Positions 2,567 through 10,706 of a stretch of DNA of 18,616 nucleotides are shown piece after piece. The stretch comes from a virus (taxonomy: Duplodnaviria > Heunggongvirae > Uroviricota > Caudoviricetes): IMG/VR virus record IMGVR_UViG_2711768037_000018, positions 1 to 18,616 of that record. One strand, 5' to 3'. The position numbers and the translations under genes are program-made. Under the pieces are notes generated by a model. The model saw nothing but the letters and a program-made list of their open reading frames with translations, searched no databases and was not told where the DNA came from. Each line of letters begins with the position of its first letter. Within the stretch, counting starts at the first letter, position 1.

Positions 2567-3190
2567 CTAACGTGTGACCGTATTCAAAATGCTGTCTGCG
2601 ATTGACTCTTCTTTGTGGCATTGCACCACCAGAGCGTCATACAGCGGCTTAACAGTGCGTGACCAGGTGGGTTGGGTAAGATTTGGGATTAGCATCGTCA
2701 CAGCGCGATATGCGGCGCTTGCTGGCATCCTTGAATAGCCGACACCTTTGCATCTTCCGCATTCTTTCTCAACAACTCTCCCCCACTGCTCTGTTTTTGC
2801 TATATCAACCGCACGGCCTGTACCGTGACAATCTCTGCATCTTGCGCCAGGCGTCGCGGCACTACGGCAATAATCCGCATAAGCGAATGTTGCGAGCACT
2901 TGCAGTACCTTTGCCTTAGTATTTCCTTCAAGCTTTGCCACACCACGGTATTTCCCCGATACCTTGTGTGCAAATTGCATCAGATAGTTGATAGCTTTTT
3001 GTTTGTCATTCTGGCTGAGTTCGTGCTTGCCGCAGAATGCAGCCATACCGAATCCGGCTTGTGATTGCGCCATCCCCATAGCAGCCATCACATCAGTACC
3101 GGAAAGAGAGTCAGAAGCCGTGGCCCGTGGTGAGTCGCTCATCATCGGGCTTTTTGGCGAATGAAATTTAGCTACGCTTTCGAGTCTCAT
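2567..3190 (-). CDS. Q: Late gene antiterminator Q
   Basis: 207 aa MRLESVAKFHSPKSPMMSDSPRATASDSL..., near-identical to lambda Q as recalled, including the Cys-rich zinc-binding region. Confidence 0.95.
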   Translation of the reverse strand: MRLESVAKFHSPKSPMMSDSPRATASDSLSGTDVMAAMGMAQSQAGFGMAAFCGKHELSQNDKQKAINYLMQFAHKVSGKYRGVAKLEGNTKAKVLQVLATFAYADYCRSAATPGARCRDCHGTGRAVDIAKTEQWGRVVEKECGRCKGVGYSRMPASAAYRAVTMLIPNLTQPTWSRTVKPLYDALVVQCHKEESIADSILNTVTR

Positions 3191-5732: not shown

Positions 5733-7169
5733 TCAGAATCCTCCTTTCTTCTTGGACTGCGGTTCCTCACGTTCACGGCGGCGCATTTCAGCAGACTGTT
5801 GGTCTGTGTCATAAATAGCGCCATTTGCCTGAATGCAATACACCGTGCCGGTATTGCCATGACGATTGAGGCGAAGGATTAGTTCGGTTTCACCAGGAGG
5901 AACGCTGTCATCAAAAGCACCTTCACGATGGATCCCCACCCAATAATCGCAATCCTGTTCAATCTGCCCTGTATCTCGTGAGTCACTTGGTAATGGGCGT
6001 TTATTGGTTCGGCTTTCCAGTGCGCGGTTAAGCTGTGTCAGAAGCACAACAACGCAATCAAGCTCTTTGGCAAGGTTCTTCAGTCCTTTGGTGATCATGC
6101 CGTAAGCAAGGTCGTTGCGATCGGCCTTTTCAGCGGTCATTAGTGTCAGGTAATCGACCAGAATCATGCCAACACATCCTTTTTCTCGCTTGATTCGACG
6201 GCTTTCGCTGACGATTTGAGCCAGAGATAATCCCGGCGTGTCGTCGATGTAAAGCAGGTCGATTTCACTCAAGCGATTGGCTGTTTCGATCGCCCTGTTG
6301 AAGTCACCATCGTAATCACCCTGATAGCCGTCATCAGCGTCATTTGTCGCCGGAAGGTAAAAAATATTCGGGTTAACACCTGACTTCTGTCCTACCAGTT
6401 TTTCCAGTATCTGGTCACCTGGCATTTCAAGGCTGAACATCAGAGCGGGCTTTTTCTCATGCACTGCGCAGTTGATTGCCATCTGGCTGTATAGGGTTGT
6501 CTTGCCCATCTTAGGGCGAGCGCCAATGACAAACAGAGAGCCTTTCACCAGGCCTTTCGGTGACAGCATCCTGTCCAGCGATGGGATCCCTGTGCTCATT
6601 CCTCGTTGTTCGCCTGACGGGTCAAATCGCTTCTCAAGGTCGCTAACCCAGTCTTCCATGACCTCACCAAATGAGCGAAGGCCGCGACGCGATCCGGTTT
6701 TTGCATGGTCTGTCAGTTGCGTGAAAATCGCCTGAATAGCTTCGTACTTCTGCGTTGCAGTCATTCCGTTGCGGGAATAGAGCAATTCCGTCGCTTCAGT
6801 CATGCGGTTGATGGCGTAGCGTTCCATTGCGGTTTCACGAACCTGCATTGCATAGGCAACGATGTTTGCTGCGCTTGGCGTGTTCTTTGCGATCTCAGCG
6901 ATATAAGCAAAACCTCCAACAGACGCCGTTAACGATTTGCGCTCCAGTTCATCGAAAAGCGTCAGCCCATCTACTGGCTTTTGCTCCCGGTGCATTCTGG
7001 TTATTTCTTCGAAAAGGATTTTGTGTGGTCGGCTGTAAAATGAATCAGGCTTCAGCATCGCCAGAACTTTCCGGACGCGCTCACTGCTGTCATCATCCAG
7101 AAGCAATCCACCAATCACCGCCTGCTCTGCCTCGATGCTATGGGGCGGCGCATAAAAATTATCGGTCAT
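5733..7169 (-). CDS. Replicative DNA helicase, DnaB family (P22 gene 12-like)
   Basis: About 478 aa from ATG 7167-7169; Walker A GARPKMGKTT, DnaB-like N-terminal domain (SIEAEQAVIGGLL) and RecA-like core; the track start at 7184 is a GTG extension. Confidence 0.9.
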   Translation of the reverse strand: MTDNFYAPPHSIEAEQAVIGGLLLDDDSSERVRKVLAMLKPDSFYSRPHKILFEEITRMHREQKPVDGLTLFDELERKSLTASVGGFAYIAEIAKNTPSAANIVAYAMQVRETAMERYAINRMTEATELLYSRNGMTATQKYEAIQAIFTQLTDHAKTGSRRGLRSFGEVMEDWVSDLEKRFDPSGEQRGMSTGIPSLDRMLSPKGLVKGSLFVIGARPKMGKTTLYSQMAINCAVHEKKPALMFSLEMPGDQILEKLVGQKSGVNPNIFYLPATNDADDGYQGDYDGDFNRAIETANRLSEIDLLYIDDTPGLSLAQIVSESRRIKREKGCVGMILVDYLTLMTAEKADRNDLAYGMITKGLKNLAKELDCVVVLLTQLNRALESRTNKRPLPSDSRDTGQIEQDCDYWVGIHREGAFDDSVPPGETELILRLNRHGNTGTVYCIQANGAIYDTDQQSAEMRRREREEPQSKKKGGF

Positions 7170-8231: not shown

Positions 8232-8510
8232 TCAGGCCTCGAAGAATTCGCCGTTCTTCGGGGCTTTTTCTTTTGTCAGCATTCTGGCTACTTTCTTAGC
8301 CAGTTCCGCCAACTCCTCGTCTTCAACACCCCACTCCAGCACAGCCAGAAGCATGGCCATCTTTGGGATAAAGCTGTCTTTCCATCGCGAAATTTGCGAT
8401 TCATTGATCCCTAATGCATCAGCAACCTTTCGCTGACCACGTACAGCAATTCGATTTAGGATGTTGCTTGTAATTGCATTCGCTTTCTTGCGAGTACTTG
8501 TAAGTTGCAT
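8232..8510 (-). CDS. cII: CII transcriptional activator
   Basis: 92 aa from internal ATG: MQLTSTRKKANAITSNILNRIAVRGQRKVADALGINESQISRWKDSFIPKMAMLLAVLEWGV..., aligns with lambda CII (..SQISRWKRDWIPKFSMLLAVLEWGV..). Confidence 0.85.
   Translation of the reverse strand: MQLTSTRKKANAITSNILNRIAVRGQRKVADALGINESQISRWKDSFIPKMAMLLAVLEWGVEDEELAELAKKVARMLTKEKAPKNGEFFEA
8236..8274 (+). terminator. Intrinsic terminator on the strand antisense to the cII 3' end (oop-RNA-like terminator)
   Basis: Plus strand: GCCTCGAAGAA-TTCGCCG-TTCTTCGGGGC (11-bp stem with one G-U) followed by TTTTTCTTTT; sits just inside the cII C-terminal codons, as lambda oop does. Confidence 0.6.
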
Positions 8511-8520
8511 ATGTAAGTAT
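8488..8520 (+). promoter_or_regulatory. pRE-like CII-dependent promoter (TTGC-N6-TTGT at -35, AAGTAT -10)
   Basis: TTGCGAGTACTTGTAAGTTGCATATGTAAGTATTTCC closely resembles lambda pRE (TTGCGTTTGTTTGCACGAACCATATGTAAGTATTTCC) as recalled; reads toward cro/cI. Confidence 0.55.
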
Positions 8521-8568
8521 TTCCTTAACAAATAAGAAGTTATGCGCACCAACTGATGCGCGTTGTAT

Positions 8569-8612
8569 TCCCGCATTTCGGCGGGAATGAGGACCATGAC
8601 TGTTAAAGAGCG
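8569..8612 (-). promoter_or_regulatory. nutR: boxA (CGCTCTTTAACA) + boxB hairpin (TCCCGC-CGAAAT-GCGGGA)
   Basis: Between cro and cII on the minus strand; boxA matches the consensus; boxB is identical to the hairpin in nutL. Confidence 0.7.
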
Positions 8613-8619
8613 GTGTTAC

Positions 8620-8844
8620 TTATGCTGCCTGATTCGGTTTTGGAAACAGGTGTGGCAAATCGGGGCGAATTTCGTAAGCCTTGATCTGCCCTCCAGTGGC
8701 GTTAACGATGGCGGTAACTTTCTCTGGAGAGACCAACCCGCCTTTCAGCCATTTGTGTACTGCTGGCTGCGTTACACCACACTTGTCGGCAAGGCGCTTT
8801 TGGCTACCGACAATTTTCAAGGCTCGTTGAATTACTAAATTCAT
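8620..8844 (-). CDS. cro: Cro-like repressor, YdaS-type HTH (74 aa from third in-frame ATG)
   Basis: HTH segment QKRLADKCGVTQPAVHKWLKG and ...ATGGQIKAYEIRPDL resemble the YdaS/Cro family; divergent from cI across an operator region; AGAGG 7 nt upstream of the chosen ATG. Confidence 0.8.
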   Translation of the reverse strand: MNLVIQRALKIVGSQKRLADKCGVTQPAVHKWLKGGLVSPEKVTAIVNATGGQIKAYEIRPDLPHLFPKPNQAA

Positions 8845-8877
8845 GAGCATACCTCTTGTGGTCATTACTTATAACCA

Positions 8878-8906
8878 AAGATAACTCAAGTTATAAAAAA
8901 TAGCAA
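8878..8906 (-). promoter_or_regulatory. pR promoter (TTGCTA-N17-TATCTT on minus strand)
   Basis: -10 overlaps operator 8881-8894, -35 abuts operator 8906-8919, as with lambda pR/OR1/OR2. Confidence 0.5.
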
Positions 8907-8943
8907 TAACCTTTGTTATTTTACTTTGGATAACCGTAGTTAT
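8881..8943. promoter_or_regulatory. OR operator cluster: three 14-bp inverted repeats ATAAC-N4-GTTAT
   Basis: ATAACTCAAGTTAT (8881-8894), ATAACCTTTGTTAT (8906-8919), ATAACCGTAGTTAT (8930-8943), centres about 24 bp apart between divergent cro and cI; pRM-like -10 TAGATT at 8943-8948 precedes the cI ATG by about 7 nt. Confidence 0.65.
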
Positions 8944-8955
8944 AGATTTGTGAGT

Positions 8956-9663
8956 ATGAAAACATTCGCAGAAAGACTAAATGCAGCCATGAGCTCAGCA
9001 GGGGTATCACAATCACAGCTTGCTGACATGGTTGGAATATCTCAGCCAGCCATACAGAAGATGTCGTCCGGTAAAACAAACGGATCTCGCAAGATGGTTG
9101 AATTAGCCAATGCTTTAAAAGTGCGTCCTGAATGGCTTAGTTCTGGTATTGGTGAAATGAGGGATGGTGCACATGAAGAACCATCCAATGTCCGTGAGTC
9201 ATCTTTAAAAGCTGTGGTATGGGAAGACATTAAAAGAAACGATGACGAGTTTGTTGCGTTGCCTCTTCTTAACGTTTCGCTTTCAGCTGGAAGCGGTAGC
9301 TGCGAGCTAGAGGAATCATCGGAGTTCTCTTTGGTTTTCAGAAAGCACTATCTGAAAAAGATGGGAGTATCAGAAAGATCAGCCAAGCTAGTTAGGGTTG
9401 TAGGGCAAAGCATGGAACCAACGCTTCACGATGGCGATGTTGTTGGTGTTAACACGCAAGATACCACAATCAGAGATGGTAAAACCTACGCTATTTGCCA
9501 GTCTGATTTGTTACGAGTAAAAACATTAATCGCCACCCCTACATCGGTGATAATCAGATCAATAAATCGCGAAGAGTACCCGGATGAAGTAATGGATAGA
9601 GATGAATTTCATGAAACCGTAAGGATTATTGGCAGAGTATTCTGGTCGTCTCATAGTTGGTAA
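8956..9663 (+). CDS. cI: CI-type prophage repressor (N-terminal HTH + C-terminal S24 LexA-like autopeptidase domain)
   Basis: 235 aa from ATG 8956 (track start 8926 is a TTG extension); HTH region SQSQLADMVGISQPAIQKM; C-terminal GQSMEPT (catalytic Ser) and downstream Lys; apparently leaderless start like lambda cI from pRM. Confidence 0.9.
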   Translation: MKTFAERLNAAMSSAGVSQSQLADMVGISQPAIQKMSSGKTNGSRKMVELANALKVRPEWLSSGIGEMRDGAHEEPSNVRESSLKAVVWEDIKRNDDEFVALPLLNVSLSAGSGSCELEESSEFSLVFRKHYLKKMGVSERSAKLVRVVGQSMEPTLHDGDVVGVNTQDTTIRDGKTYAICQSDLLRVKTLIATPTSVIIRSINREEYPDEVMDRDEFHETVRIIGRVFWSSHSW

Positions 9664-9703: not shown

Positions 9704-10000
9704 ATGGAATTTCTGATAGTTTTTGTTGTTGTTTTGGTCATCATTCTTTTTGTTTTGCTAAGCATTAGCAAAAAGCTATCTCAAATGATTGAACATAGCT
9801 CTAATCGCGCAAAAGAAGAAGAGCATCTAATTGATATAAAAGAGATTCTCTCTGATATAAAAATCACATTAGATGAAATAAAATACACAACAGATCTAAT
9901 TGAACAGTATAAAATACCAACCCCAAACGAGAGAAAAGCAATAGATCAATATCGTATTGACTTAGAAATCGACGAAATGCTAAGCAAAAGAAAAGACTAA
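9704..10000 (+). CDS. Hypothetical single-pass membrane protein (98 aa), AT-rich, co-oriented directly downstream of cI
   Basis: N-terminal TM helix EFLIVFVVVLVIILFVLLSI then charged helical region; GGAGGG SD; strongly AT-rich codon usage compared with neighbours; followed by an intrinsic terminator. Confidence 0.7.
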   Translation: MEFLIVFVVVLVIILFVLLSISKKLSQMIEHSSNRAKEEEHLIDIKEILSDIKITLDEIKYTTDLIEQYKIPTPNERKAIDQYRIDLEIDEMLSKRKD

Positions 10001-10004
10001 AAAC

Positions 10005-10034
10005 ACCCGGCCTCAGCGCCGGGTTTTCTTTTCC
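10005..10034 (+). terminator. Intrinsic terminator ending the cI transcription unit
   Basis: CCCGGC-CTCAGC-GCCGGG hairpin followed by TTTTCTTTTCC. Confidence 0.7.
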
Positions 10035-10197
10035 TGCCGTTCACCACCCAATCAACCATCCTCATCATAGACAAGCATCAAGCCAAAGGTAACACCTTCA
10101 CCCCGCACGTAAGCCCTCAAACACCAATCAATCAGCAACATTTACAAAAATAAAATACCTTTGTTATCCATCACTTATAACTTATTTACCATAAAAT

Positions 10198-10239
10198 ATA
10201 AATTAGGTTATTGACCACACCTATAACCTAGGTTATCTT
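10198..10239 (+). promoter_or_regulatory. pL promoter with OL operators (TTGACC-N17-TATCTT; operators ATAAATTAGGTTAT and ATAACCTAGGTTAT)
   Basis: Same ATAAC-N4-GTTAT operator type as OR; perfect palindrome at 10223-10236 overlaps spacer/-10; located upstream of nutL and N. Confidence 0.5.
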
Positions 10240-10284: not shown

Positions 10285-10326
10285 GGCTCTTTAACATTGA
10301 TGGGATTGTCCCGCCGAAATGCGGGA
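10285..10326 (+). promoter_or_regulatory. nutL: boxA (GGCTCTTTAACA) + boxB hairpin (TCCCGC-CGAAAT-GCGGGA)
   Basis: About 110 nt upstream of N; boxB identical to nutR. Confidence 0.7.
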
Positions 10327-10433: not shown

Positions 10434-10706
10434 ATGACAGTAGTCATTACATATCTGGCTGACGATAACGCCAGAAATCGCCGCAGAGCACGCAGACAGG
10501 CTCAACGTGAACAGGCAATGCAAGAGCAGCGACTGGCACGAAAAATTGCGCTAAAGCTCTCTGGTTGCGTCAGAGCAGATAAAGCAGCATCACTCGGAAG
10601 CCTTCGCTGCAAGAAGGCAGATGAATGCAGTGGAAGTATTTGCCTGCCAAACGTAGCCATTTACGCGGCAGGCTACCGGAAATCAAAACAACTGACGGCG
10701 AGGTAA
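10434..10706 (+). CDS. N: N-type antitermination protein (P22 gene 24-like)
   Basis: 90 aa; arginine-rich motif DNARNRRRARRQAQREQ; C-terminus LPNVAIYAAGYRKSKQLTAR resembles the P22 gp24 C-terminus as recalled; GGAGG SD. Confidence 0.85.
   Translation: MTVVITYLADDNARNRRRARRQAQREQAMQEQRLARKIALKLSGCVRADKAASLGSLRCKKADECSGSICLPNVAIYAAGYRKSKQLTAR

Follow-up and report, generated by a model that had tools for sequence, protein, structure and literature searches.

The DNA analysed here, referred to as the window, is an 18,616-nucleotide stretch of a tailed-virus record (Caudoviricetes; IMGVR_UViG_2711768037_000018). Between its divergent cro and cI genes lie three perfect ATAAC-N4-GTTAT palindromes, and two further sites of the same kind are found at pL. 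We suggest, with a probability of roughly 85%, that these sites are the OR and OL operators through which a lambda-like prophage of E. coli sets its CI/Cro immunity switch, a reading based on comparison of sequences. The module is a further widespread immunity specificity of the lambda/434 class and an ordinary member of that well-understood class. It is not new: its operator motif was predicted earlier in silico for the phage PA28.

A sequence-only reading of this DNA had described the three 14-bp inverted repeats at OR and a recurrence of their half-site at pL (10198-10236). On re-reading, the coordinates and sequences of the three repeats proved exact, and the recurrence at pL resolves into two sites, one perfect and one with a single mismatch. 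The sites are as follows.

8881-8894: OR1, ATAACTCAAGTTAT; read from the sequence and found by site scan; perfect in 27 of 27 OR variants.
8906-8919: OR2, ATAACCTTTGTTAT; sequence and site scan; one mismatch in several relatives.
8930-8943: OR3, ATAACCGTAGTTAT; sequence and site scan; perfect across all variants.
10198-10211: OL2, ATAAATTAGGTTAT; one mismatch; position 5 off-consensus in every relative.
10223-10236: OL1, ATAACCTAGGTTAT; perfect match.
10154-10190: candidate degenerate OL4/OL3; half-sites GTTAT at 10163-10167 and ATAAC at 10177-10181; conserved in 44 OL variants.

The three OR sites are spaced 25 and 24 bp from start to start; in lambda, the operator centres are 24 and 23 bp apart. 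A search for ATAACNNNNGTTAT with at most one mismatch on both strands of the 18.6 kb returned exactly five sites, which are OR1-3 and OL1-2. Dinucleotide-preserving shuffles of the window gave a mean of 0.40 sites and a maximum of 3, and none of the 200 shuffles reached five. A comparison with Rfam identified no RNA family in the window.

Relatives were collected as 80 IMG/VR loci, using the N-terminal domain of CI as the query, and six loci from GTDB genomes, using full-length CI. Every locus whose CI contains the sequence SQPAIQKM, comprising the 80 IMG/VR loci and three of the six genome loci, has three sites at approximately -75, -50 and -26 from the cI ATG. These loci come from E. coli, Kluyvera, Enterobacter and Entomohabitans and represent 27 distinct OR variants; most are close relatives, so that far fewer independent evolutionary events than loci are represented. 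At the fixed offsets the half-sites are nearly invariant (~90 loci), while spacers and flanks drift. In PA28, for example, the OR half-sites are kept and the spacers change from TCAA to ATGA in OR1, from CTTT to AATT in OR2 and from CGTA to CGTG in OR3.

Part of the information content was calculated by choosing the best-matching position no more than 2 bp from where a site was expected, which makes it mildly circular. It amounts to 1.3-2.0 bits for positions 1-5 and 10-14, against 0.5-0.6 bits for the spacer and at most 0.26 bits for the flanks. Conservation is bounded exactly to positions 1-5 and 10-14, the pattern of a 14-bp two-fold symmetric operator. Within the spacer, a pyrimidine is preferred at position 6 and a purine at position 9. 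As a control, MAFFT was used to align 11 diverse OR regions. Invariant columns fall mainly in the half-sites, at -35 and -10 positions of pRM and on the ATG; elsewhere in the cro-cI interval of these 11 relatives, single invariant positions are scattered and form no additional block.

Since the region is rich in A+T, where short palindromes occur often, one may ask whether the repeats arose by chance and have no regulatory role. We give this explanation practically no weight. The shuffles argue against it, as do the fixed offsets of the sites, the confinement of conservation to the half-sites across diverged relatives, and the recurrence of the motif at pL in 76 loci. The operator reading is instead strongly supported by half-site conservation across ~90 loci, together with the covariation of the recognition helices described below.

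The individual sites differ in strength of match. The OR2 mismatches in relatives are as expected for a site whose occupancy would depend on cooperativity. The OL pair was found in 76 loci, representing 44 variants, and OL1 is essentially always perfect. Position 5 of OL2, in contrast to the consensus C, is A (rarely G) in every relative examined, which suggests that the weakness of OL2 is itself conserved. Upstream of OL2, the half-sites of the GTTAT-N9-ATAAC element point outward and lie 21 and 23 bp from the sites next to them. Some relatives have a near-complete site at the second outward half-site, giving an OL3 of ATAACTTATGTGAT; the two half-sites may be degenerate forms of OL3 and OL4. 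One homoimmune locus, from Entomohabitans (L008), has an extra ATAAC-N7-GTTAT upstream of OR1, at about 2895-2915; an ORF search of this locus identified no recognisable YdaS-type cro.

The two proteins expected to read the sites are encoded on either side of OR.

8620-8844, minus strand: cro; 74 aa, YdaS/P22-Cro-type all-alpha helix-turn-helix (HTH) protein with recognition helix TQPAVHKW.
8852-8858, minus strand: Shine-Dalgarno sequence of cro, AAGAGGT, 7 nt ahead of the ATG at 8844; read from the sequence.
8956-9663, plus strand: cI; 235 aa, with HTH_3 and Peptidase_S24 domains (Pfam).

The YdaS-type cro beside OR that had been read from the sequence is confirmed by Pfam: Cro matches PF15943 (YdaS) with 64.0 bits against a cut-off of 30, over profile positions 1-60 of 65, and has a weaker match to P22_Cro. 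Its nearest solved structure is the all-alpha Xfaso1 Cro (3bd1), and the same 225-nt cro gene is called by PGAP in NC_013361. The N-terminal domain of CI is a 434-type HTH with helix 3 formed by S29-Q-P-A-I-Q-K35. Its closest solved homologue is the DNA-binding domain of the phage 434 repressor, to which it aligns without gaps over 60 residues (phmmer against the PDB: 1r69, 2or1 and 1per, E ~1e-7). The C-terminal domain is an S24 autopeptidase with A111-G112, S152 and K189 at the expected motifs. Because these residues are present, RecA-dependent induction is to be expected.

The recognition helices of both proteins change together with the palindrome.

Window and relatives: CI helix 3 SQPAIQK, Cro TQPAVHK; ATAAC-N4-GTTAT at OR and OL.
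L009 (Izhakiella): CI SQAAIQKI, Cro TQQAVYKW; ACAAC-N4-GTTGT at OR and OL.
L010 (Erwinia): CI AQSSVNKL, Cro SQSTICDW; ATCGC-N4-GCGAT at OR and OL.

ATAAC sites are absent from the three relatives that have a similar CI C-terminal domain and a different helix 3, and two of these three have another 5-4-5 palindrome in their place. Within the ATAAC group the recognition helices of CI and Cro are nearly the same. Short of wet-lab work, this covariation is the strongest evidence that CI and Cro may both read the sites. We also considered that the palindromes are bound by Cro or another factor only, and that CI reads a less obvious element in the same intergenic region. The Cro helix TQPAVHK also matches the sites, covariation alone cannot separate the two proteins, and the footprinted operators of the BAA2326 repressor are weakly symmetric (PMC5977221). 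Even so, we regard this arrangement as highly improbable. In L009 and L010, helix 3 of CI changes with the palindrome independently of similarity in the C-terminal domain; the 434 repressor, a homologue of the CI N-terminal domain, binds palindromes of 14 bp; and in the MAFFT alignment of 11 relatives the cro-cI interval shows no other conserved block beyond the pRM hexamers and the ATG. Recognition of the same palindrome by CI and Cro therefore remains the preferred reading.

The 434 system provides a structural frame for these changes. In 434 co-crystals, A1 is recognised by Q28, base pair 2 (C:G) by Q29 and base pairs 4-5 by Q33. In our alignment, T27-Q28-Q29-S30-I31-E32-Q33 of 434 corresponds to S29-Q30-P31-A32-I33-Q34-K35 of the window CI. 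Operator A1 is retained along with the conserved glutamine (Q28 in 434, Q30 here), and, along with the replacement of Q by P, base pair 2 is T instead of C. Helix 3 further differs from that of 434 in having Lys for Q33 as well as Pro for Q29, and C5 of the operator is strongly conserved here. The Cro of L009 carries Q at the counterpart of 434 Q29, and position 2 of the L009 operator is C. The operator changes thus appear to fit the 434 recognition code. The series could yield a simple code of its own, for example with Pro at the 434-Q29 position pairing with operator T2.

The palindromes lie over the predicted promoters that they would control.

10211-10239, plus strand: pL; TTGACC, 17-nt spacer, TATCTT; found by promoter scan, 9/12.
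8878-8883, minus strand: predicted pR -10, TATCTT; overlaps the outer half of OR1, in the register of the pL -10.
8901-8906, minus strand: predicted pR -35, TTGCTA; 17-nt spacer; begins at the last T of OR2.
8920-8925, plus strand: predicted pRM -35, TTTACT; adjoins OR2; its columns are largely invariant among the 11 diverse relatives aligned with MAFFT.
8943-8948, plus strand: predicted pRM -10, TAGATT; overlaps the last base of OR3; 17-nt spacer; TAnATT in all relatives.

At pL, OL1 covers the -10 and the last base of OL2 is the first T of the -35. The pR register on the minus strand repeats that of pL. In relatives, the pR -10 is conserved as TAT(C/T/G)(T/A)T and the counterpart of the -35 is TGGACA. 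An alternative pR -10, TATAAG at 8868-8873, is present in the window but not conserved. We infer the positions of pR and pRM from the conservation of their register and from the parallel with pL. The overlap of the operators with pR and pRM, also proposed from the sequence alone, is accordingly to be read as predicted: the sites lie over hexamers conserved in register, but each promoter matches the sigma-70 consensus at 8/12, below the threshold of the promoter scan, which called neither.

The same reading had placed TAGATT about 7 nt before the cI ATG, and this is correct (8943-8948, 7 nt, ATG at 8956). In all variants TAnATT is followed by 6-7 variable nucleotides and then by the cI ATG, with no conserved Shine-Dalgarno sequence, making it plausible that the cI mRNA is leaderless. 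We consider it probable that the transcript is leaderless or nearly so. In lambda, whose cI mRNA from pRM is leaderless, the pRM -10 is likewise TAGATT, followed after 6 nt by the cI ATG. Alternatively, the operators could be genuine and the maintenance transcript of cI could nevertheless carry a leader, with pRM elsewhere or further upstream and with a weak ribosome-binding site or another start codon. The 8/12 hexamers missed by the scan would allow this, as would two features of the window, the in-frame GTG 8950 and a stretch resembling GAG ahead of the ATG. We think it unlikely, since the TTTACT-17-TAnATT arrangement is register-conserved in all relatives at 6-7 nt from the ATG, the geometry is that of lambda pRM, and PGAP also chooses the ATG at 8956. 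The GTG and the purine run of the window are absent from relatives (the corresponding stretch is ACAGGT in PA28 and GATAAG in locus L089). The candidate starts TTG 8926 and GTG 8950 were rejected because they are not conserved. A leaderless or near-leaderless cI transcript thus remains the preferred reading. In the phage SH2026Stx1 (MG986485), cI is annotated at 6491-7060, about 140 nt (46 codons) past the conserved ATG, and the annotation omits the HTH; the gene caller probably lacked a ribosome-binding site at the true start.

If pRM transcription starts near 8955, the centre of OR2 would lie at approximately -43 and that of OR3 at approximately -19. Lambda CI activates and represses pRM from positions like these.

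In the switch that we propose, CI dimers, through the SQPAIQK helix, and Cro dimers, through TQPAVHK, would both recognise the 14-bp ATAAC-N4-GTTAT site. In a lysogen, CI at OR1 and OR2 would cover the -10 and -35 of pR and block expression of cro, cII and the replication genes, and CI at OL1 and OL2 would cover pL and block N. CI bound at OR2 would adjoin the pRM -35, with its centre near -43, the place that CI occupies in lambda when it activates pRM. Occupation of OR3, which lies over the pRM -10, would shut off cI at high CI concentration or upon binding of Cro. Transcription from pRM (TTTACT, 17 nt, TAGATT) probably begins at the cI AUG or within 1-2 nt of it, giving a leaderless or nearly leaderless mRNA. 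Upon SOS induction, RecA would stimulate CI to cleave itself at A111-G112 by means of its S152/K189 dyad.

The remaining elements of the control region surround this core.

8232-8510, minus strand: cII; true start at 8510, not the mechanical-ORF start at 8597; preceded by AAGGAAA.
8488-8520, plus strand: pRE-like promoter; TTGC-N6-TTGT, 13 nt, AAGTAT; overlaps the cII start.
8570-8611, minus strand: nutR; boxA 8602-8611, boxB 8570-8585; same 16-nt boxB as nutL.
9704-10000, plus strand: orf98; small predicted membrane protein, hydrophobic near its N-terminus; belongs to phrog_18389, of unknown function.
10005-10033, plus strand: intrinsic terminator, tIMM-like; ends the cI-orf98 operon.
10286-10325, plus strand: nutL; boxA GCTCTTTAAC at 10286-10295, boxB CCCGCCGAAATGCGGG at 10310-10325.
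10434-10706, plus strand: N antiterminator; Pfam N_peptide, 58 bits.

With cI, cro, CII, N, the nut sites, the pRE-like element and the terminator all located, the region is a complete lambda-style early control region with its rightward operon on the minus strand. The Phage_CII profile of Pfam matches residues 30-120 of the long cII ORF (8232-8597), and PGAP calls cII as a 279-nt gene in NC_013361. Lambda pRE has the form TTGC-N6-TTGY, 13 nt, AAGTAT, and the pRE-like element has the same spacing. A second TTGC-N6-TTGC is located inside cII, at 8464-8477. The N protein has an arginine-rich N-terminus, RNRRRARRQ, matching the boxA and boxB elements of nutL and nutR. Between cI and the terminator, and co-oriented with cI, orf98 occupies the slot of lambda rexAB; it has no match in Pfam. 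In the relatives, 836 to 2658 bp separate the cI start from OL2, indicating that this slot carries variable cargo.

Two ORFs placed like a late antiterminator (2567-3190) and a holin (1810-2133), and assigned solely by the order matching the annotated prophage of NC_013361, are only ~430 bp apart. This distance leaves no room for an stx operon. Most likely, the window represents a lambdoid prophage of the non-Stx kind, with an immunity module in common with Stx phages.

The closest parallels to the switch are found in phages 434 and lambda. Like 434, the system has 14-bp two-fold symmetric operators, three of them at OR, and near-identical recognition helices in CI and Cro. It differs in the operator sequence, which in 434 is ACAA-N6-TTGT with half-site ACAA(G/T) and here is ATAAC in a 5-4-5 arrangement. 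The Cro protein belongs to the all-alpha YdaS/P22-Cro/Xfaso1 family and not to the 434 Cro type, and at the nucleotide level neither the CI C-terminal domain nor the cI-cro DNA is related to 434. Identity with imm434 itself, which would call for ACAA...TTGT operators and the helix TQQSIEQ, was rejected; ATAAC with SQPAIQK is a different specificity. With lambda, the module shares gene order and strand logic, an OR2 that abuts the predicted pRM -35, and in CI the Ala-Gly cleavage site and the Ser/Lys dyad. Lambda differs in having 17-bp operators of unrelated sequence, an alpha+beta Cro, rexAB where orf98 sits here, and a CI N-terminal fold of a different subtype with an N-terminal arm.

Among Stx phages, PA28 has the same operator consensus and layout, an identical CI helix 3 and a CI that is 84.8% identical. 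It differs in its spacers and flanks and in an OR2 mismatch (GTTGT). We infer that the window phage and PA28 are homoimmune. Two other lambdoid phages with a tripartite OR, H-19B and HK620, were considered and rejected as carriers of the same immunity. H-19B, the classic Stx1 phage for which four OR sites are reported (PMC8065619), has no significant similarity in CI or Cro and has other operators and another intergenic sequence (AF034975). HK620 has AATAC-N5-GTATT 17-mers as operators and a different CI and Cro. HK620 (L094) does share DNA with the window, found by megablast at ~90% identity through nutL into N; mEpX2 and HF4s show about the same identity. It begins right after OL1, from window position 10237 onward, placing the mosaic junction of the immunity module at the operator edge.

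The 1.85-kb cro-to-N segment is 99.3% identical to the Stx1a phage Stx1a_10051, 94% identical to SH2026Stx1 over the cro-cI part only, and 78.7% identical to PA28, a Stx2a phage, and to a group of Stx1a phages from O157. In a tblastn search, a CI more than 60% identical was found in only 20 phage records, and the next match, from a Yersinia phage, is 41% identical. The OR-cI segment is present in 163 of 5426 complete E. coli genomes, including O26:H11 strain 11368 and strain H19. In strain 11368 it is part of a P22-like prophage in which the starts of cI, cro and cII given by PGAP are the ones inferred here; no stx gene is annotated in the 25-kb stretch of this prophage that was examined.

Operators of this type were predicted in silico for the PST3 phage PA28 (Table S5, Additional file 6; Yin et al. 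2015, PMC4587872). Five of the six sites in that table are reverse complements of the PA28 sites found here. The sixth, a 13-mer, falls between two other half-sites, also conserved, on the upstream side of OL2. Judged by gene order, the table has its OR and OL labels swapped, with 'OL1-3' lying between cro and cI. A 2022 survey of Stx-phage regulatory regions defined CI clades and gave no operators (PMC8951638). In the literature searched, we found no footprinting, EMSA or transcript mapping of this immunity type, and a search with the operator motif string returned nothing relevant. The claim that the operator specificity is unfamiliar thus holds in part: the sequence does differ from that of 434, but the architecture and the CI domain are of the 434 type and the motif had been predicted for PA28 in 2015.

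Mechanistically, the module brings nothing unexpected to what is established for lambda and 434. What it chiefly contributes is a clean, naturally occurring covariation series for DNA recognition of the 434 type. The module, carried by ~3% of complete E. coli genomes, is found in Stx1a and Stx2a phages and in non-Stx P22-like O26:H11 prophages (11368, H19). With the operators known, cross-immunity of resident prophages against incoming Stx phages becomes predictable, reporter or decoy constructs can be designed, and induction thresholds can be compared with those of the hair-trigger 933W and BAA2326 switches. The GTTAT-N9-ATAAC element and the sub-consensus OL2 may act as tuned weak sites, the former as OL3/OL4, that set looping and hence the induction threshold of the Stx phages. 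That both hold jointly, the CI/Cro series being matched 434-type specificity switches and the OL half-sites and OL2 being tuned for OL-OR looping, is a possibility that we regard as somewhat doubtful.

An additional ATAAC half-site is located at 8871-8875, exactly 10 bp outside OR1 and covering the predicted pR start. It is kept in the E. coli sublineage and in PA28 and not in other homoimmune relatives. A fourth OR site at 8871-8884, ATAACCAAAGATAA, with two mismatches, was rejected as part of the core switch: it is confined to the E. coli sublineage and missing from other homoimmune relatives. The O104:H4 phage BAA2326 was likewise set aside as a carrier of the same immunity. Its operators hold ATAAC/GGTTAT strings, but its repressor is 61% identical to lambda CI. 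On the minus strand around 8871-8875, the sequence CTTTGGTTATAAGTAAT resembles CCTTTGGTTATATGTAAT, the footprinted 'OR3' of the unrelated BAA2326 repressor (PMC5977221). The likeness of this 'OR3' to window positions 8867-8884 looks like sequence shared at the pR start region.
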